The notes under the pieces were generated by a model, which saw only the letters and a list, made by a program, of their open reading frames with translations, did not search any database and was not told the DNA's origin. A program made the translations under genes and the position numbers. A stretch of DNA of 64,000 nucleotides, from sequence record PQ818763. One strand, written 5' to 3'. Source of the DNA: Shigella phage ShigP1. The first letter of the stretch is position 1, and each line of letters opens with the position of its first letter. Below, piece after piece: positions 1 through 40,324 of the stretch.

Positions 1-429
1 GTTTTATATCTTTCGGCAAGTTTACTACATAAACCGACTATGTACTTTCATCATAAGATGAATCTCAAGCCGTTCACATCGTAAACGTTCACACTAAACC
101 TTATTGTTAAATAGCAATTTGCCACTTTTTAACCATTCACCGCCGCTCTCAATTGAGCGTTAATTCGTCGGGATTGCCTACCCTGATTAACTTCTTTCAC
201 CGTAGCACCATGTTAGCGATGACCGCCGCTACCCTTAACCGTGGGCGATTAGCTTAAGTCTTTGCGTGTACTCAATGAATCCGTTTATCAATGGTGACGT
301 TTCCAGTAAGGGAATGTAAAACTGTTTACCCTGATAATTTAGGGAGTTTTACGCCGTTTTATCTGGTATGCTTTCCGATGGTTATTATCATCAAGCATAT
401 TCAACCGATATAGGAGAATGTTTAAATTA

Positions 430-1372
430 TTAAAGAGCGGTAAATCTATCAGTGTGCTTTCTCACACTATGCAACTGTTAGCCGTTGTTACGCTTTTCAC
501 TGAAGCGATGATTTGCTTAGTGAGTGCTCATTATGAATCATGTTGTTTTCGCTGTCAACCGCTTTTTAATCTTTTTCGTCGTTCCCGCTATTGGGAGGAT
601 ATATCAATCAGCTTTATTTGATTGAAGATTAAGCGGTGAGGCTTAACTTATGACTCATGTTGTTAAAGAGCGTTTAGCCTTTTAAAGTGTCTGCTAATCA
701 CTGTCACATTGAAGGCTTACTGATTCATTAACAGGCCGCCTACACCTGAACTAATCGCTGCACTATGTGCCACCTTTCCCGCGATACGTTGATTTGGGAA
801 CTAGTTAGCGATGTTTTGCTAACTTGTGGTTAGTATGGACTACTTTAACCACGTTTGCAACTCTTTTTATCATCTTCTTTTAATTCCTTTCCCTTATCTC
901 GCGTGAATCTATGCGAAAGGGCAAGATGATAAGTCTGATTTGTCTTTCAGGGAATCTAGTGCGCTTTCAAGCATTAATCTTTTGAAAGTATCGAACAAAT
1001 AAGGCTTATTGATATTGCTTATTGTCCGCCTGCGTCACGTATGAATCAGGAATCAATTCTACCGATTAACTGAGCGCCTTATAGTAATGACGTCGCCGCC
1101 ACCCGTAAGACAAATCATATTTTTAAAGAGCGGGATTTTTTAAGTCATCGCTGACTATGCTCACTATATATCAGGCTGTTTTCGGTGTCAATACTCTTTT
1201 TAAGAATATTTTCACTTTCTAGCCTGATTTTTAAAGAGCGGGGCAAGTTTCCTTGCCTTGTATGTTTTACATCGTACCCGATGAAATGAAGTATACATTA
1301 ATCAGTGAGGGATGCAATAGGGTAAAACAAAATATTTTAAACTTTTTCACTATAGGAAGGTAAAAGAGCGGG
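430..1372. repeat. Five same-orientation copies of an 11-nt motif TTAAAGAGCGG (about 430, 663, 1123, 1231, 1363) in a 1.5 kb non-coding region
   Basis: Read directly: ttaaagagcgg at 430-440, 1123-1133, 1231-1241; ttaaagagcgt at 663-672; aaaagagcgg at 1363-1372. No long ORF across the region. Confidence 0.6.
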
Positions 1373-1471
1373 CGAACGTGATACATCATAGGAAAAGGCT
1401 TGTAAAGCGATAACAAGCGGCCTATAACGCATCACAATGAGCTAAAAGGGAGTAAGGTATACAATCACCTT

Positions 1472-1502
1472 AGAAAAGAAAAAAGCCTCATAGCGAGGCT
1501 TA
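1472..1502 (-). terminator. Hairpin (aagcctc / gaggctt) flanked by A/T runs, downstream of the minus-strand gene ending at 1578
   Basis: 7-bp inverted repeat at 1483-1501 with a T-run on the minus strand (A-run 1474-1484 on plus). Confidence 0.5.
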
Positions 1503-1577
1503 TAGGAAGGATTTAAAGCATCAGATAGATTATGACCATAGGCATGACTACGGCACAATACAGGAGAAAGATTAAGC

Positions 1578-1943
1578 CTATGGATTTACACATTGACCAT
1601 TACCGGACTCAATTTCATTCATGGACTCATCAAAGAGCGTCAACGATGAGCGCATCAAGTGATCTATCGTGATTTGTTTACCGGTAGTTTCATTTACCAG
1701 CAGAATAGCTTTGTTATCTGATTGCACATGATCAAAATCATTTACATGCAAAATAATAACTTTAGGTGACTGTTTACCAGTTTCGTAATTCTCTACGAGA
1801 TAGGTACACTGTAAACCGTCAACCGTATCAGGGGAGAATGTTGCAGCCTTAACGCTACCCATAGATGACAGCAGGACACCTAACAGGAGAACAACCAGAA
1901 AGAAGCCTACAAATACTTTCACTACAAACTTGATAACACCCAT
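1578..1943 (-). CDS. Membrane-anchored hypothetical protein (N-terminal hydrophobic segment)
   Basis: ORF of 121 aa; N-terminus VVKVFVGFFLVVLLLGVLL is signal-anchor-like; no recognisable catalytic motif. Confidence 0.4.
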   Translation of the reverse strand: MGVIKFVVKVFVGFFLVVLLLGVLLSSMGSVKAATFSPDTVDGLQCTYLVENYETGKQSPKVIILHVNDFDHVQSDNKAILLVNETTGKQITIDHLMRSSLTLFDESMNEIESGNGQCVNP

Positions 1944-2038
1944 GATAATAAACCTTTAGTTAGAGAATGTAAGAATACAGCATATCAGCAATGAACAGCA
2001 GGAAGGTCGCACCAAACAAGCAACGCCAAAAATAATCA

Positions 2039-2314
2039 CTATTCATCGTTGCTATTCTCGCCAAAAAATGCTACGCTAATCTGTTCCACTTCTTCCAGCG
2101 ACAGGAGAATCCCGCGTTGGGCTAAATACTTCCCAACAGTTAGATAATCTTGCACTAAACAGACAATAGGAAAGCGTATGTTTTGTATCTCACCTTTAGA
2201 AAGAAAAGACAAATAACCAGCGTCGACTGATTCATCAAAGGACAATGTAACGCCACCGTAATTATGCGTATCAATTAACGCAATAGTTTCATTTCCCATT
2301 GGTATCATCCCCAA
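2039..2314 (-). CDS. Hypothetical protein
   Basis: ORF of 91 aa, co-oriented with its neighbours; no motif recognised. Confidence 0.3.
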   Translation of the reverse strand: MGMIPMGNETIALIDTHNYGGVTLSFDESVDAGYLSFLSKGEIQNIRFPIVCLVQDYLTVGKYLAQRGILLSLEEVEQISVAFFGENSNDE

Positions 2315-2555
2315 TCAGACCATGATTAAGCAGGTTAGCCAGCGACAAATCACCGTCAATATAGATTGATCTGAAATCATCGCGGGTAATTTCGAAATCA
2401 GCAAAGGCTAGCCAATCTTTAAGAGGCTGATATTCCATCCTGCAAAAAGTGATAACAGGCAAGATTATCTGACCATCAAGTGTATTAAACTCGATAGATT
2501 GCCCACCAACAAAACAAGAAAAGCCGTTTGATAACTTAACTTCTTTGATAGCCAT
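2289..2555 (-). CDS. Hypothetical protein
   Basis: ORF of 88 aa, co-oriented; no motif recognised. Confidence 0.3.
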   Translation of the reverse strand: MAIKEVKLSNGFSCFVGGQSIEFNTLDGQIILPVITFCRMEYQPLKDWLAFADFEITRDDFRSIYIDGDLSLANLLNHGLIGDDTNGK

Positions 2556-2580
2556 TTTTACACTCCTGAAAATAGGTTAT

Positions 2581-3453
2581 TTACTTACTAGCCTTAATAC
2601 AGTTGGCTAAACTAACGTGAACGGTATAAACAGCGTTATTAGCGTTATTGTAAACAGTGGTAGCAATCATCGACTCATTGATCGGGCCATAACTCACTAG
2701 ATTGGTTACAGCTTTAACGTCTTCGTAACGTTGTACAGTGCCAAATGTAACCATATCCGAGTCACTATCGGTGCGCTTGAGAACTAGATCATTGTTAGGC
2801 TGATTGTCTAGTGTCTTAGACTGAAAGAGAACGCCATCATTAGTTACGTTGCTAAACTTCATTTTTAATACAATAGTACTTCCATCACTATCCGCACCGT
2901 TGCAAATCATCCAACCCTTATTGATGGAACTAGAGAAGACACTAGCGGCATCAGTTGCAGGAGTAGAACTAGCGATAGCTTTATCAGAAAGAGATGTGAC
3001 CAGTGCACTAACACCGATCGCTGCAACCAGTGCATAACTTGCCAGATTAACAGACTTCATAATCTTACTTGCAACAGTAGGCTTGATTGGCTGTTTCTTG
3101 TTTTTCTTATTCCATGCTTCAACCATGACAGACAAGCGGGATAATTCAGCTTTCACATCGCGGCATGACTCAGGCCAATCCTTCTGATTCCAGCTATCTA
3201 AATTTGCTTGAATGTAGCAATTAATAGCGTCCTGCATATTGGTAAAACCGTTCTCTTTGAACGTGCTTTCATCTTCACACTGTAAAGCGTTCGCAGTAGA
3301 GTTAATGATCAAGCAAGCCAGCATTACAGAGTTTTTGAATCCTTTACGTGCACTTTCGTTTTCCATCCACGCATCAGGACTACCAACGGTTAAGCCTAAA
3401 GAGGAAAGGCTTTCGTTTGCTTTGTTCAAGTGGTTAATCGCTACTTTAGACAT
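2581..3453 (-). CDS. Hypothetical membrane protein (single central TM helix)
   Basis: ORF of 290 aa; central hydrophobic stretch VNLASYALVAAIGVSALVTSL separates two hydrophilic domains. Confidence 0.45.
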   Translation of the reverse strand: MSKVAINHLNKANESLSSLGLTVGSPDAWMENESARKGFKNSVMLACLIINSTANALQCEDESTFKENGFTNMQDAINCYIQANLDSWNQKDWPESCRDVKAELSRLSVMVEAWNKKNKKQPIKPTVASKIMKSVNLASYALVAAIGVSALVTSLSDKAIASSTPATDAASVFSSSINKGWMICNGADSDGSTIVLKMKFSNVTNDGVLFQSKTLDNQPNNDLVLKRTDSDSDMVTFGTVQRYEDVKAVTNLVSYGPINESMIATTVYNNANNAVYTVHVSLANCIKASK

Positions 3454-4236
3454 TTGATATTCCTTATGGTTGATGAAAACTACAAACTACAATCGCAACT
3501 ATATAATAAAGGAAAAGGCTGTCAACCATTTATTTTCTAACTTTCCTATAACTCACTGAAAACTAAAGGGATTTAATTTACTAAACTTTCCATACTCAGA
3601 GAATCAGCTTACTTCTTATTGTTACTTTATAACACTACGGGTAACAGACCAACAGATCAGGACAAACGGGGATACAACAACCGCAGAACAGACCACGGGG
3701 AAACATAGGCAGATAGTGCGGTAGTAATATACCACTTAAATAATTGTATAACTCAAACATCAAAGACGTTCGCTACGCTCACAAAGGCACGCTGAAAAAA
3801 GAAAAGAATAAAAGCAATTATTAAAAGAATTACAATCATCCACTTAATTAATACATATATCATTATTGCACTCATAATCATTACTATTGAAACTATTTAC
3901 ATTCAAACTATGGGGGATGTGGGCTATTACTTATGGGTATTATTAGCCTCTTATGGTAGTGCCTGTACTAGTTTATACAGTGCTAGCCTTTCTCTCACTC
4001 TTTAAAGGGGAACTAAATAAACGGGTAGCTAATGAATAGGATGGTATACACGGGGGAATAATTACGGGGAGTAGGCACGGGGAAAGGTGGAACGTGGGAA
4101 TGGGCTTAAAGGCATTGCCAATAACCCTTTTTTTAAATGAGGACTCCCCCTTTTTAGGAAACGCGCGGCGAGCGGCTAGCCCCATTCGGTCAAATCAGAA
4201 TTTTAAACTCTTATATATAAGGTTGAAAGAGAACTT

Positions 4237-4401
4237 ATGTGGAAAATTAAGTTAATCATTAAGCAATTCAAATGTGATCATGAGTACTATCGGATACGCA
4301 AAGCTTACGGGGATGAAAGAGTTCACACCCTTTATAAGTCCACTTGGAGATGTAGTAAATGTGGAAAGCTTAAACACAGCACATGGATGGATAGGCCTTA
4401 A
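4237..4401 (+). CDS. Small Cys/His-rich (zinc-ribbon-like) protein, 54 aa, absent from the ORF track
   Basis: Manual translation MWKIKLIIKQFKCDHEYYRIRKAYGDERVHTLYKSTWRCSKCGK...; C-x-H ... C-x2-C spacing; lies inside the repeat-rich leader. Confidence 0.3.
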   Translation: MWKIKLIIKQFKCDHEYYRIRKAYGDERVHTLYKSTWRCSKCGKLKHSTWMDRP

Positions 4402-18525: not shown

Positions 18526-18595
18526 AGTAGTGAGTACCCTTAGTAAGTAATGAAACTAATATATCCCAAGAGGTTAATATATAGGAGACACTCAA

Positions 18596-18814
18596 ATGAA
18601 AATGATGAAACAAGCTGCATATGGTTTAATATGTTTAGGCGCAGGTGTTGTGGTATCCACCGCAGTTCCTGTAGGCGCAGTTCATCCATTAGTAACTGTC
18701 CCTGCTCCAGTAGAGAAGCTTAGCTCTCAATGCAAGCAGAGAACAATTCAAAATAACTTAGTTGTTATTTGCCCTGATGCTGAATCTAACGCTCTGAGAA
18801 AGATACTACCTTAA
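18596..18814 (+). CDS. Small membrane protein, holin candidate
   Basis: 72 aa; one hydrophobic helix AAYGLICLGAGVVVSTAVPVGAV; immediately upstream of the lysozyme gene. Confidence 0.3.
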   Translation: MKMMKQAAYGLICLGAGVVVSTAVPVGAVHPLVTVPAPVEKLSSQCKQRTIQNNLVVICPDAESNALRKILP

Positions 18815-18843
18815 TTTAAAGGGACTACAAAAGGAGGTTAGAA

Positions 18844-19335
18844 ATGGATAACGTCGCATTGCCACCTGTACAACTAAACTTAAGCCCAGCTGGAATGGAA
18901 TTCATCATGAAGCATGAGGGTATGAGAACAAAGGCTTATAAAGATTCCGCAGGTATCTGGACTATATGTGTAGGGGCTACGCGCGATATGAATGGTTATC
19001 CGGTTAGACAAGGATTAACGTATTCTATAGAGGATTGTCTAGCTCTGCTAGATAGAGACACACAAGACTCTGTTCGTGCTACTCAGAAGAACATAAAGGT
19101 TCCTTTACTAGTTCATGAGTTTGATGCACTCACTTCTTTCAACTTCAATGTTGGCAGTGGAGCTTTGAGCACATCTAAGTTAAGGAAGGTAATCAATGGA
19201 GATGTTAAGGGGGATGTTTATTCCGAATTTCTTCGTTGGGATAAAATAACGGTCAAGGGAGAGAAGCAGAGAAGTCAGGGTCTTCATAATAGAAGAGTTG
19301 CAGAAGCTAATCTTTACACCGAAGGTAAATATTAA
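18844..19335 (+). CDS. Lysozyme (GH24, T4-lysozyme-like muramidase)
   Basis: FIMKHEGMRTKAYKDSAGIWTICVGAT contains the Glu-8aa-Asp-5aa-Thr catalytic pattern of T4-type lysozymes. Confidence 0.8.
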   Translation: MDNVALPPVQLNLSPAGMEFIMKHEGMRTKAYKDSAGIWTICVGATRDMNGYPVRQGLTYSIEDCLALLDRDTQDSVRATQKNIKVPLLVHEFDALTSFNFNVGSGALSTSKLRKVINGDVKGDVYSEFLRWDKITVKGEKQRSQGLHNRRVAEANLYTEGKY

Positions 19336-29740: not shown

Positions 29741-29807
29741 GACCTAAGTCCTGCCTTCTATAATGTATATAGGGGGTAGGACATTTTTATTTATAAAAGG
29801 AGACGTT

Positions 29808-35192: not shown

Positions 35193-35586
35193 TTCCTTTT
35201 TTGAATTGTTTTCTTGCATCATTTTCCATCTTAGTTTTAATCTTATGACAAGGGTCTTTACACAGAACCTGAAAACCTTCTTTCTCACATAGAGCACGAG
35301 AGATGATTTCATCCCAAGTTGCTTCATGGTCAAGAGGAACTATAGGCTCTATGTGGTCAATAGCCATATCCTTTACAGGGTGGTCAGAACCACACATGGC
35401 ACACTTGAAGTGCATTGCCAGTCTACCTGTCTTTGGATTAATCTTCTGCTCTGTCTTGGCGTCTGCTAGTGCATCGAACATGGGCTTCCACTTTCTAGTC
35501 AGAGAACGAATCCCGGACTTGATGAAAGAGTTGTAACGAGCTTCAGTCCACATTCCACTACAGCGAGTCTTCTCAGACTTCGCCAT
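35185..35586 (-). CDS. HNH-family nuclease
   Basis: HFKCAMCGSDHPVKDMAIDHIEPI...LCKDPCHKIK shows CxxC...DH...CxxCH spacing. Confidence 0.55.
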   Translation of the reverse strand: MAKSEKTRCSGMWTEARYNSFIKSGIRSLTRKWKPMFDALADAKTEQKINPKTGRLAMHFKCAMCGSDHPVKDMAIDHIEPIVPLDHEATWDEIISRALCEKEGFQVLCKDPCHKIKTKMENDARKQFKKGNE

Positions 35587-35752
35587 AATCAGCTTCTTCC
35601 CAAACTCGTTTGTTTACACGATGGCTCACCTTACCCTCACGAGGAATACGACCAGTTCTCTGATCAAACAGTTGATGTTTAATCTTTTGGTCTTTACGAG
35701 ATTCACGATTGGAGGAGTTTTCATCATATGAACGATAATCAAATTTACCCAT
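35573..35752 (-). CDS. Small basic protein, about 59 aa, absent from the ORF track
   Basis: Manual translation MGKFDYRSYDENSSNRESRK...; its stop overlaps the start of the downstream gene. Confidence 0.3.
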   Translation of the reverse strand: MGKFDYRSYDENSSNRESRKDQKIKHQLFDQRTGRIPREGKVSHRVNKRVWEEADYGEV

Positions 35753-35765
35753 TATAATATCCTTA

Positions 35766-36584
35766 TTACCAAGATTTATCTAACCATGTCCAGTCGAACA
35801 GGTCTTCCGGAGTCTGACCAACAAAGAGCAGCCGAGCATTCTCAAGCATCTTCTCTTCATCTTCAGTATCGAACTTCTTATAATATTCCATTCGTACTAT
35901 ATGATACATGGTCCACTTATCTGTAACACCAGCCAATAGTTTAGCTGCTGCTTTCTTCCCTATTCCTTGACGTCGAAGCTGGAGCTTACCACCCCACATA
36001 ACTTCTTCACGTTCTCCACATCCGGGGATATTATCTGTACCATCTCCAATCAACATTTGATAGAAGAAGTTTTGCCATGAAACTAAATCAGATACATAGT
36101 GAGGAGGAACCTCTTTCTGTCTTTCTCCACAAGCCCAACGGTAGTGCCATCCGGGAGTTATCAACAAATCCTTGTCTCTAGTACAGATGATAGTGTTTTT
36201 ATCCCTACGTTGCCTTTCAGCTAGTGCATCATCAGCCTCTCTCCCAAATACATCTATGTATTCATATTTACCTTTAATGTAATCACCAACATTTTGCCAG
36301 TGAAAAGGTCTTTCTCCGGGAGGTCTGTTTGCCTTGTAGTCTTGCTGCTTAGCAACATCAAAACGGAAATTACCACCTTCGCTGAAGTAGAACACAACCT
36401 TACTACAACCTGATCGAGCTATGATTGTATCAATCTTATACTGAAGTCGTTCAATCATGAAATTGTAATCAACTGGAACACGTCCTGTGTCAAGAAAGGG
36501 ATGCTCCTGAGTAAGAGCACCCACTTCATATCGAAGAACGTCAGCATCCACTATAGCTACCTCAGGGAGCTTAACGTCTTCCAT
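35766..36584 (-). CDS. 5'-3' exonuclease / flap endonuclease (FEN, PIN-like)
   Basis: IVDADVLRY, YKANRP, GREADDALA, DKDLL and GDGTDNIPG motifs typical of 5'-3' exonucleases. Confidence 0.8.
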   Translation of the reverse strand: MEDVKLPEVAIVDADVLRYEVGALTQEHPFLDTGRVPVDYNFMIERLQYKIDTIIARSGCSKVVFYFSEGGNFRFDVAKQQDYKANRPPGERPFHWQNVGDYIKGKYEYIDVFGREADDALAERQRRDKNTIICTRDKDLLITPGWHYRWACGERQKEVPPHYVSDLVSWQNFFYQMLIGDGTDNIPGCGEREEVMWGGKLQLRRQGIGKKAAAKLLAGVTDKWTMYHIVRMEYYKKFDTEDEEKMLENARLLFVGQTPEDLFDWTWLDKSW

Positions 36585-37122: not shown

Positions 37123-38608
<1,486 letters not shown>

Positions 38609-38609
<1 letters not shown>

Positions 38610-38869
38610 TATTCTATTCCACGCTCTTTCAGAGCTTCTAACAATCCATTGTGATTGGCAGCACATTCTGTGTACTGGTCCTGATACCACTCCAACGTAG
38701 TGGCTAATGCTTTTCCTTGAGCACTTTCTAAAAGAGGCAGGTCAACCCTACATTCAGCTTTTAGGTTTGTTGGTAAGGGCATTGATTGCCTGCTGTTGTC
38801 GCTCGTTGAACAAGCTGACATACTCATCACTAGCGCAGACATTATAAAAAACTGGTTTAGTTTTCTCAT
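38609..38869 (-). CDS. Outer-membrane spanin (o-spanin lipoprotein) candidate, overlapping the i-spanin out of frame
   Basis: MRKLNQFFIMSALVMSMSAC has a lipoprotein-like signal and Cys; embedded in the 3' part of the neighbouring gene in another frame (Rz/Rz1-type arrangement). Confidence 0.45.
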
Positions 38870-39104
38870 AATGCATCTCTTTATAAACGGTTTCCGTGTT
38901 CTTCTTCCAGTTAGATAAACCGGTAAGAACTCTCTGAGCAACTTCATCAGCTGCTCTACTTCTTTCAATCTCTAACTCTTGCTGGTGCTTCTCTTTGTCC
39001 AGATTACTGCTGTCTGTTTGATATTCGTTAAACTTCATACCACCAAAGAATACAAGAGCTGAGAAAACGATAAACCCTAAGTTATCACTTAATGTGTTTT
39101 GCAT
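38754..39104 (-). CDS. Inner-membrane spanin (i-spanin) candidate
   Basis: N-terminal TM helix LGFIVFSALVFFGG followed by a charged helical domain; start at ATG 39104 (SD GGAGA) because the track start lies within the upstream terminator. Confidence 0.5.
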   Translation of the reverse strand: MQNTLSDNLGFIVFSALVFFGGMKFNEYQTDSSNLDKEKHQQELEIERSRAADEVAQRVLTGLSNWKKNTETVYKEMHYEKTKPVFYNVCASDEYVSLFNERQQQAINALTNKPKS

Positions 39105-39117
39105 GTTGTCTCCAACG

Positions 39118-39146
39118 AAAAAAGCCACCCGGAGGTGGCTAAGCTA
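39118..39146 (-). terminator. Rho-independent terminator (agccacc / ggtggct with T-run on the minus strand)
   Basis: Perfect 7-bp stem followed by TTTTTT on the minus strand, downstream of the SSB-like gene. Confidence 0.6.
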
Positions 39147-39161
39147 TAACAAGGAGAGTTA

Positions 39162-39908
39162 TTAGAATGGGCTATCGTTGTCGTCTTCGTAAGTAGAAGC
39201 AGGCTCTTTATCAATCGTAGGGATTGAAGGAGTAGCTTCTTTCTGCTCTGTTTCAGAAGCACGAGTAATTTCACGACCAGCCAGAGGCATGTTCTTAGCG
39301 TCATTAGCTTGAGTAAGCAGGTTGCGCTGGAACGGGAACATCAGTTGATAGGATGCTACGTTCTCATCGGTTTCAGCATACGGTTCGAAGAATACCAGAG
39401 GACTACGAGCTTCACCAACTGCTGCACGATATTTGGTTGGGATTGGAGAAATGGTCTTGATGGAGTTTTTAACTTCACCAGATTTGTTAGTATAAGAGTT
39501 AACCAGAATGTTAACAGGCTGACCTAACAGAACATCCTTGAACCAAGACAGATCACCTTTCAGTGCTTGAATACTTGGGTCAATCATTTTGCAAAGATCA
39601 AGAATACCAGAGTTCTTAGCTCGTGGGTTTACATCATAGCTCTTGAACTGGCAAGCTGGACGTGGTTCTAATGCCTTACCATCGGAATCTTTACCAGTAG
39701 CATCAACACCAATCAGCTCGAAAGCTAAATCCATACGGAAAGCCGGATTCTTAGGAGTTACTGCTTTGGTCTTCGGGTCAATCCAAGGGTCACGATTGTG
39801 AACACCCAAACCTACTACACGAACGATACGTGCTTCGTATTCACCATCAGGGATTACATCGTAGTTGGATTTACGGGAAGCAGTTGCGATAGTTGGAATC
39901 ATAGACAT
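39162..39908 (-). CDS. Single-stranded DNA-binding protein candidate (acidic C-terminal tail ending in Phe)
   Basis: 248 aa; C-terminus ...TYEDDNDSPF resembles the acidic, aromatic-terminated tail of SSBs; located in the replication module. Confidence 0.45.
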   Translation of the reverse strand: MSMIPTIATASRKSNYDVIPDGEYEARIVRVVGLGVHNRDPWIDPKTKAVTPKNPAFRMDLAFELIGVDATGKDSDGKALEPRPACQFKSYDVNPRAKNSGILDLCKMIDPSIQALKGDLSWFKDVLLGQPVNILVNSYTNKSGEVKNSIKTISPIPTKYRAAVGEARSPLVFFEPYAETDENVASYQLMFPFQRNLLTQANDAKNMPLAGREITRASETEQKEATPSIPTIDKEPASTYEDDNDSPF

Positions 39909-40324
39909 ATTTTAATTTCCTTATTTAATTTGAAAGATTGTTGCTCTCTTTGAGCGGTTATGTATAGTATACATTACGCTTATACCGATAAGAGTACTAT
40001 ATAATATAAGTATCTTTGGTAGTAGATATAACACACTAGTAATGTATATATTGTATAGCTGATAAAGTTATTGCAGGCTTGTATATTGGGCAATTCACAG
40101 AATCCCTTGCAAGTACCGAAGGGCAGGAGCCACCTGCGAGATAAAAATAGAGAATTAAGGAATCCTTGATTTAGGTTGTAGGGACTCCTAGGGACTTTGA
40201 TTCTCTATTTAAAAGAATATTAATTACTTATTACCTAAATAATTAACTAACCTACTTAAACCAAATTCAAGAATAATAGATAAAAAGATTATTCCTAAGA
40301 AAGCTAAAAAGTAAAGGATATAAG
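39909..40324 (-). promoter_or_regulatory. ORF-free AT-rich region of 416 bp with an 11-bp inverted repeat and a short direct repeat; candidate promoter/operator or origin
   Basis: aaatagagaat (40145-40155) and attctctattt (40200-40210) are reverse complements; tagggact is duplicated between them. Confidence 0.35.

Follow-up and report, generated by a model that had tools for sequence, protein, structure and literature searches.

Predicted overlapped spanin genes of Shigella phage ShigP1 situated apart from the holin and endolysin genes

Two open reading frames on the minus strand of the window (the whole stretch of 64,000 nucleotides of the ShigP1 record PQ818763 that was analysed), 39104..38754 and 38869..38609, appear to code for an overlapped two-component spanin, orthologous to gp39 and to an N-terminally extended gp38 of phage phiEco32. 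The probability of this reading, the lytic mechanism included, is put at roughly 0.9. A preliminary description of this DNA had presented the locus as an overlapped spanin pair, which fits the way phiEco32 has been curated in the literature, the annotation of its relatives and the family and conservation tests made here; it had placed the pair at 38609-39104, and this interval is the exact union of both genes. Gene structure, membrane signals, homology and the conservation of both frames were observed directly for the ShigP1 pair. The features of the locus are the following.

38754..39104, minus strand: i-spanin gene, equivalent of phiEco32 gp39, 116 aa (open reading frame, phrog_1152, RefSeq, Kongari 2018)
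39109..39113, minus strand: Shine-Dalgarno sequence GGAGA of the i-spanin gene, 4 nt ahead of the ATG (read from the sequence)
39030..39080, minus strand: hydrophobic, predicted transmembrane segment of the i-spanin, LGFIVFSALVFFGGM, codons 9-25 (Kyte-Doolittle maxima, AF2 helix)
38609..38869, minus strand: o-spanin gene, N-terminally extended phiEco32 gp38, 86-aa precursor and predicted 67-aa mature lipoprotein (open reading frame, phrog_2425, Kongari 2018, tblastn)
38810..38869, minus strand: predicted lipoprotein signal peptide of the o-spanin with the lipobox M-S-A-C (pattern match; Cys invariant in the o-spanin alignment A2)
38754..38869, minus strand: dual-coding overlap of 116 nt, o-spanin in the +1 frame relative to the i-spanin (open reading frames, variability, Kongari 2018)

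The window belongs to a Kuravirus (Gordonclarkvirinae): the 1.9 kb around the pair are 99.3% identical to Escherichia phage MN03 and 98.4-98.6% identical to phiEco32, SU10 and other genomes of this genus, and the order of genes in the window is that of phiEco32. The pair gp39/gp38 of phiEco32 shares 98.4% DNA identity with that of ShigP1, the lengths of 116 and 86 aa, the 116-nt overlap and the neighbours, with gene 40 upstream and the macro-domain and sigma factor genes downstream. The substitutions are few; the residues after the lipobox Cys, for instance, are SMSD in phiEco32 and STSD in ShigP1. In the work of Kongari et al. 2018 (PMC6139136), where the spanins of 677 phage genomes were curated by hand, the phiEco32 genes are given as an overlapped pair on the minus strand (i-spanin 35417-35768, o-spanin 35272-35533), and supplementary file 5 of that paper lists the 116-nt overlap and the products of 116 and 86 aa. 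The same authors assigned the phiEco32 i-spanin to a 'JH2' family alongside Felix O1-like phages, and the o-spanin to a family that also includes NJ01, ECBP2 and KBNP1711, the NJ01 entry agreeing in the 86-aa sequence and in the context of the start (PMC6139136). RefSeq uses the name 'Rz-like spanin' for the larger gene of phiEco32, SU10, MN03 and WFI101126, and in phage EK5 the second gene is also labelled 'o-spanin'. One paper on a Kuravirus describes overlapping spanins, the i-spanin with an N-terminal transmembrane domain and the o-spanin with a lipobox (PMC13417854), and another places the holin and endolysin genes at ~2.2-2.9 kb and the o-spanin gene at ~21.8 kb on the complementary strand (PMC12733307). 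Since the pair is already listed by Kongari et al. 2018, by RefSeq and in the papers on Kuravirus phages, the finding made in ShigP1, including the distance from the holin and endolysin genes, is known. As to the function of the pair, its architecture and its homology to other predicted spanins point to a spanin.

The i-spanin gene extends from the ATG at 39104 to the stop codon at 38754, and its product of 116 aa has the N-terminus MQNTLSDNLGFIVFSALVFFGGMKF. A longer form of 124 aa, starting from the GTG at 39128, was rejected; this codon lies inside the terminator-like hairpin described below. As the preliminary description had suggested, the protein looks like an i-spanin with an N-terminal transmembrane helix. 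It contains a single hydrophobic stretch at about residues 9-25, where the highest 11-residue Kyte-Doolittle window (9-19) reaches 2.68; the single-sequence AF2 model places an N-terminal helix at residues 3-25 (with low confidence), and the protein matches phrog_1152, 'Rz-like spanin', with an E value of 2.7e-37. The N-terminus MQNTLSDN bears no positive charge, so that the positive-inside rule gives no clear prediction of an N-in/C-out orientation; a table of Kongari et al. 2018 (PMC6139136) flags the lack of N-terminal positive charge for the NJ01 orthologue too. The remaining 86 residues beyond the hydrophobic segment are 31% charged and include one predicted periplasmic Cys, in the motif FYNVC, which is invariant in the i-spanin alignment A1. 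A helical periplasmic part had also been proposed. The AF2 model is all-helical here (H36-76, H79-91, H93-111), but its mean pLDDT is 56, and the tables of Kongari et al. 2018 (PMC6139136) put the predicted helix at 61% for the phiEco32 i-spanin, in which no coiled coil was predicted; together this weakly suggests that the periplasmic part may be helical.

Neither protein gave a meaningful match to a Pfam or NCBIfam family or any match in PADLOC, and no match of either to the lambda Rz family, which we take to be PF03245 'Phage_lysis' in Pfam, was obtained in the Pfam scan (E <= 0.1) or with NCBIfam. These libraries therefore neither back nor oppose the assignment of the two genes as spanins, which draws its backing from PHROGs, published work and the comparisons with relatives. 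The phiEco32-type spanin is a sequence family distinct from lambda Rz, and a scan of IMG/VR with the i-spanin returned only six loci.

The o-spanin gene extends from the ATG at 38869 to the stop codon at 38609 and encodes 86 aa; the sequence starts with MRKLNQFFIMSALVMSMSACSTSDNSRQSMPLPTNLK. The signal region reads MRKLNQFFIMSALVMSMSA|C, with an n-region MRK, an h-region FFIMSALVMSM, the codon of the lipobox Cys20 at 38812..38810 and Ser at position +2. Because the residue after the Cys is Ser and not Asp, sorting to the outer membrane is predicted. The Met at position -3 of the lipobox is less common there than Leu, and some relatives have Leu at this place. When a filter for lipoprotein signals was applied to every start in the six frames of the 64-kb window, the o-spanin was the sole match, and no other candidate for a second lipoprotein or a unimolecular spanin was found in these frames. 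The lipoprotein-like frame reported in the preliminary description has thus been borne out, with its lipobox MSAC, the Ser at +2, its uniqueness in the window and the invariance of its Cys. The predicted mature part does contain proline, as was also reported, with 3 Pro in 67 residues, but it is not proline-rich in the manner of lambda Rz1. Its two further Cys include one that is invariant in alignment A2, which comprises eight diverse homologues; predicted periplasmic cysteines for intermolecular disulfides are available in both spanins. The o-spanin matches phrog_2425, labelled 'unknown function', over its full length (E 3.5e-27), and phrog_456, 'Rz-like spanin', weakly (E 0.0013).

The start of the o-spanin gene lies inside codon 79 of the i-spanin gene, in the +1 frame, and the gene runs 145 nt (48 codons) past the i-spanin stop codon. 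As it ends beyond that stop, the arrangement is overlapped, of the type of P2 LysB/LysC, and not embedded. The text of the preliminary description, which spoke of the Rz/Rz1 embedded arrangement, has to be corrected in this respect.

The pair can be compared with several known systems. Lambda Rz/Rz1 has the same predicted topology and presumed mechanism, with a type II inner-membrane protein, a small outer-membrane lipoprotein and periplasmic cysteines; the lambda Rz1 gene lies wholly within Rz, whereas the ShigP1 o-spanin gene reaches 145 nt past the i-spanin gene, and lambda Rz1 is proline-rich, unlike the ShigP1 mature o-spanin. The lambda spanin genes directly follow S and R, and the spanin pair of P2 sits in the lysis cassette. 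No similarity between the sequences of P2 LysB/LysC and the ShigP1 pair was detected in the family scans. Their layout is the same, the o-spanin gene starting within the i-spanin gene in another frame and ending past its stop, which is the definition of overlapped spanins given by Kongari et al. 2018 (PMC6139136). A comparison outside the phiEco32 relatives is offered by Felix O1-like phages (Ounavirinae), represented by genes 43/42 of phage finno. The pair is overlapped there too; the i-spanin is 33% identical to that of ShigP1 and shares the invariant block YEKTKPxFYNVC...YV..FNE, and the o-spanin is 30% identical and has the same signal, MxKLxQxF...MS[AG]C. The Felix O1-like pair differs in its myovirus background, in its distance of only ~1.2 kb from a putative lysin gene and in the central part of the mature o-spanin, which is unrelated to that of ShigP1.

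The preliminary description had noted that the spanin genes lie about 20 kb from a GH24 lysozyme and a putative holin on the plus strand. These two genes of the late cluster are as follows.

18596..18814, plus strand: putative holin gene, 72 aa, one N-terminal hydrophobic segment (phrog_11161 'holin', E 2.8e-50)
18844..19335, plus strand: GH24 endolysin gene, 163 aa (PF00959, E 3.7e-32; phrog_7 endolysin)

The endolysin has no hydrophobic N-terminus and is predicted to be soluble for this reason. The distance between the endolysin gene and the spanin pair was measured as 19.3 kb, and the split of the lysis genes into a holin and endolysin part on the plus strand and a spanin part on the minus strand is visible in published Kuravirus annotations. 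Such a setting apart of lysis genes is common among phages and is ordinary; in the related prolate podophage Privateer, the spanin genes come after the last structural gene and the endolysin gene is ~12 kb off. For the engineering or therapeutic use of Kuravirus phages, the complete lysis set would comprise the holin, the endolysin and the distant spanin pair.

In the window, the packaging, structural and lysis genes are located on the plus strand, and the genes of replication, nucleotide metabolism and sigma factor are located on the minus strand. The surroundings of the spanin genes include the following features.

39968..39976, minus strand: exact TAATGTATA element, ~60 nt upstream of gene 40 (motif search)
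39162..39908, minus strand: gene 40, upstream of the spanin genes
39117..39140, minus strand: terminator-like hairpin AGCCACC-UCCG-GGUGGCU with a U6 tail, separating gene 40 from the i-spanin gene (scan, fold)
38169..38609, minus strand: macro-domain gene, phiEco32 gp37 (Pfam Macro, 8.2e-11)
37502..38149, minus strand: sigma factor gene, 3' of the macro-domain gene (sigma phrog, 6.1e-46)

According to Lavysh et al. 2022 (PMC8948821), TAATGTATA is the consensus for the phage sigma factor gp36, the promoters dependent on gp36 were mapped upstream of phiEco32 genes 6, 13, 26, 40, 58 and 68, and the minus-strand cluster with polymerase, nucleotide-metabolism and sigma genes belongs to the middle class. 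It is likely that the element at 39968..39976 is the promoter of a transcription unit 40-39-38-37-36. The position of the gene-40 promoter, taken together with the published description of the cluster, suggests that genes 39 and 38 would be expressed in the middle class. The hairpin at 39140..39117 has a folding energy of -19.5 kcal/mol (z -3.9), and none of 200 shuffled sequences was as stable; in WFI101126, a 'terminator' is annotated at the matching place. Since there is no space for a promoter past the hairpin, expression of the spanin genes probably depends on read-through and is reduced. The macro-domain gene begins with an ATG that overlaps the stop codon of the o-spanin gene (TAATG), and this junction suggests that the translation of the two genes may be coupled. 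A sigma-70-like promoter at 38197..38168, close to the 3' end of gene 37, corresponds to the one that the literature predicts for the sigma gene. The assignment of the spanins to a minus-strand early/middle module thus holds: the genes lie within the middle-gene cluster, behind the gene-40 promoter and the terminator, and upstream of the sigma gene. The position of the locus is conserved down to 48% protein identity, at a locus of a viral contig of 88 kb (L011). That this fixed place behind a terminator in the sigma-gene unit answers a functional need, such as an early accumulation of spanin at a low level or a second role in the envelope before lysis, and is not a historical accident, seems a distant prospect.

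The same location might suit another reading, in which the two genes encode an inner-membrane protein and an outer-membrane lipoprotein with a non-lytic role in the envelope, for example superinfection exclusion or receptor masking (cf. T5 Llp and Cor). The pair belongs to the middle-gene cluster, next to a sigma factor gene and 19.3 kb from the holin and endolysin genes, and the literature searched contained no experimental test of the ShigP1/phiEco32-type spanin family by complementation, lipid labelling or knockout. A non-lytic role is nevertheless considered very improbable. The larger protein matches a PHROG of spanins with an E value of 2.7e-37, PADLOC gave no match, and the overlapped two-gene architecture together with a type II membrane protein is a signature of spanins, whereas exclusion lipoproteins are encoded by single genes. 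Besides, the homologous pair of Felixounavirus is located ~1.2 kb from a putative lysin gene, and the window holds no other spanin candidate, although a phage with a holin and an endolysin needs one in a Gram-negative host.

By analogy with the established knowledge of lambda Rz/Rz1, we infer as follows how the ShigP1 spanin pair is oriented, lipidated and assembled, when it is made and how it acts in lysis. The N-terminal helix would fix the 116-aa i-spanin in the inner membrane, leaving a charged helical domain of ~86 residues in the periplasm. The 86-aa o-spanin would be exported, lipidated at Cys20 and relieved of its signal peptide by signal peptidase II; because of the Ser next to the Cys, it is proposed that the Lol pathway takes the protein to the inner leaflet of the outer membrane. 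The periplasmic domains of the two proteins would then bind each other and bridge the periplasm through the mesh of peptidoglycan. The spanin genes would be transcribed as middle genes: a transcript starting at the gp36-dependent promoter before gene 40 would read through the terminator and cover the macro-domain and sigma genes as well. As spanins are restrained by intact peptidoglycan, producing them before the late holin and endolysin should do no harm. The complex would stay inert until the holin frees the GH24 endolysin and the wall is degraded; after the loss of the wall, its collapse would disrupt the outer membrane or fuse it with the inner one, which would complete lysis.

In most GenBank and RefSeq records, including those of phiEco32, SU10, WFI101126 and EK5, only the last 57 codons of the o-spanin gene are annotated, from an internal Met at 38782 and without the signal peptide. 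If this annotation were right, only gp39 and a cytoplasmic gp38 of 57 aa would be real, and the signal extension would be a by-product of the other frame. Such an explanation is hardly credible in view of the relatives, since the start codon, the n-region, the h-region and the lipobox Cys are kept in every one of them down to 30% identity. The lipobox Cys and the Cys of the i-spanin FYNVC motif are invariant down to 30-33% identity, the viral contig L011 and Felixounavirus finno included. A tblastn search with the 86-aa o-spanin gave matches in 253 phage records at a coverage of at least 80%, Ounavirinae among them, and many of these records are annotated as containing overlapping i- and o-spanin pairs. 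A stretch of 68 nt at the start of the overlap shows 82% DNA identity to Felix O1-like genomes. Kongari et al. 2018 (PMC6139136) counted 196 o-spanins that had been missed entirely and 64 annotated with a wrong start, and blamed a bias of gene callers against overlapped genes.

The relatives in which the two genes have come apart are instructive as well. Suseptimavirus phages SU7 and EK010 contain an HNH endonuclease gene between the two spanin genes, and the overlap is retained in Suseptimavirus 101114UKE3. A comparison of SU7 with 101114UKE3 revealed an insert of ~514 nt, flanked at either end by a copy of the 31 nt that surround the lipobox Cys. The old o-spanin start in the i-spanin copy of SU7 and EK010 leads into a frame that ends before the lipobox Cys or lacks it. 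In both phages the mature o-spanin sequence is retained, and ahead of it stands a new signal peptide of unrelated sequence, with L-M-A-C or L-S-A-C at its end; in SU7 it reads MLTKKKQKSCLVIFLASSLMAC, and in EK010 a GTG start, downstream of an AAGGAG site, is followed by HIKKKLLSCTGILLAFSLSAC. Both of these signal peptides come from the 3' end of the HNH gene, read in another frame. The mature part, detached from gene 39, thus again follows a signal peptide with a lipobox, now of another sequence, which shows selection for a lipoprotein and not for the annotated frame of 57 aa. An event of the same type was described by Kongari et al. 2018 (PMC6139136), who found that the overlapped pair, when T5 is compared with Shivani and phiR201, was made separate by a homing-endonuclease gene; SU7 and EK010 differ from these phages in having the coding sequence of the new o-spanin signal inside the HNH gene, at its 3' end. 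The ShigP1 window keeps the overlap.

The start at 38782 was rejected on these grounds, the signal and lipobox being kept in relatives and re-acquired in SU7 and EK010. A longer form of 119 aa, from the TTG at 38968, was also rejected: in it, 33 additional residues would precede the signal peptide and bury it, and the relatives favour the ATG at 38869. For annotation, the correct o-spanin gene is 38869..38609, of 86 aa, where most records give a 'hypothetical protein' of 57 aa. This corrected start is the only useful by-product of the analysis; in the way of discovery, the pair itself adds little.

The conservation of the overlap was assessed in 11 distinct sequences of the region, taken from Kuravirus and Suseptimavirus genomes and from IMG/VR contigs. 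Both spanin frames are open in all 11. Variable sites make up 17.2% of the overlap, 39.6% of the part that encodes only the i-spanin and 42.1% of the part that encodes only the o-spanin (Fisher p 2.4e-6), and a low variability of this kind is to be expected where a single stretch is under two coding constraints. The idea that the second frame is a chance open reading frame with a fortuitous lipobox-like string, which could draw on the mean of 0.37 matches per window that the same lipoprotein-signal filter gave on mononucleotide shuffles of the 64-kb sequence, is effectively refuted by the comparative data, namely the reduced variability of the overlap, the conservation across 253 phage records and the independent full-length PHROG match, as well as by the location of the frame exactly at the 3' end of the gene of a single-helix membrane protein. 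The changes found within the overlap fall mostly at the third codon position of the i-spanin gene, which is the second position in the codons of the o-spanin signal peptide, and the signal peptide tolerates hydrophobic exchanges at these positions.

In the divergent relative L011 (an IMG/VR contig of 87,959 nt), whose i-spanin is 47-48% identical, the region 1249-4373 retains the order of a gene-40 homologue, an overlapped spanin pair, small ORFs and the sigma factor gene. As this gene order is kept in such a distant relative, the comparison of sequences indicates that the position of the spanins within the sigma-factor unit is old in this lineage.

The architecture of the pair itself has changed in two Suseptimavirus relatives, SU7 and EK010, where the i- and o-spanin genes are parted by an HNH endonuclease gene.

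Spanin region of the Suseptimavirus relatives
L003 (SU7), 1569-2606: spanin genes separated by the HNH gene
L005 (EK010), 1555-2592: spanin genes separated by the HNH gene
L014 (101114UKE3), 1569-2061: comparison region

In both SU7 and EK010 the original start of the o-spanin is now truncated, and the 3' end of the HNH gene, read in a different frame, supplies an unrelated new signal peptide with a lipobox. The SU7 insert is bordered on either side by a copy of about 31 nt surrounding the lipobox cysteine. SU7 and EK010 represent a natural change of spanin architecture from overlapped to separated, which is analogous to the difference between T5 and Shivani (Kongari 2018, PMC6139136).

The slots around the spanin genes are variable as well. 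SU10 and WFI101126 carry a further HNH endonuclease gene, absent from the window, which is inserted between gene 40 and the terminator. The interval separating the o-spanin gene from the sigma factor gene likewise differs in content among these phages.

Variable slots flanking the spanin genes
Gene 40-terminator, L012 (WFI101126), 1088-1501: HNH gene
Gene 40-terminator, L015 (SU10), 1664-2077: HNH gene
o-spanin-sigma factor, window: macro-domain gene
o-spanin-sigma factor, WFI101126: nothing
o-spanin-sigma factor, SU7 and 101114UKE3: 74-aa ORF
o-spanin-sigma factor, EK010: 112-aa ORF, 'NrdA-like'

In most GenBank/RefSeq records the o-spanin is annotated as a 57-aa protein starting from an internal Met and lacking the signal peptide (window 38609-38782; the corresponding CDS in the relatives' loci L001, L002, L012 and L015). 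The o-spanin family, phrog_2425, carries the PHROGs label 'unknown function'.

The lysis genes on the plus strand (18596-19335) include a putative holin with a single hydrophobic segment (residues ~6-30), followed by a 40-residue tail that contains two Cys. The endolysin of a Kuravirus relative was termed a SAR endolysin in a recent paper (PMC13417854), whereas the endolysin of the window has no hydrophobic N-terminus (maximum KD19 = 0.95).

Several elements of the window resemble TAATGTATA, the consensus of promoters of the phage sigma factor gp36.

Promoter-like elements
18575-18583 (+): TAATATATA, one mismatch to the consensus, ending 13 nt before the holin ATG
29761-29769 (+): exact copy, the positional counterpart of the gene 26 late promoter
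40040-40048 (+): second exact copy, intergenic, upstream of gene 40
39958 (+; region 39958-39976) and 40049 (+): near-copies

Allowing at most one mismatch, the window contains 22 matches against 18.6 expected. The copy at 40040-40048 is directed away from gene 40, antisense to the minus-strand genes. It may act as a gp36-type promoter, either divergent or antisense, or may have arisen by chance. TAATATATA leaves only 13 nt before the holin ATG, which is probably not enough room for it to act as an ordinary promoter with a leader. The element at 29761-29769 overlaps the first ATG (29763) of a 1488-aa ORF delimited by the ORF finder, and the true start of this gene is therefore probably located further downstream.
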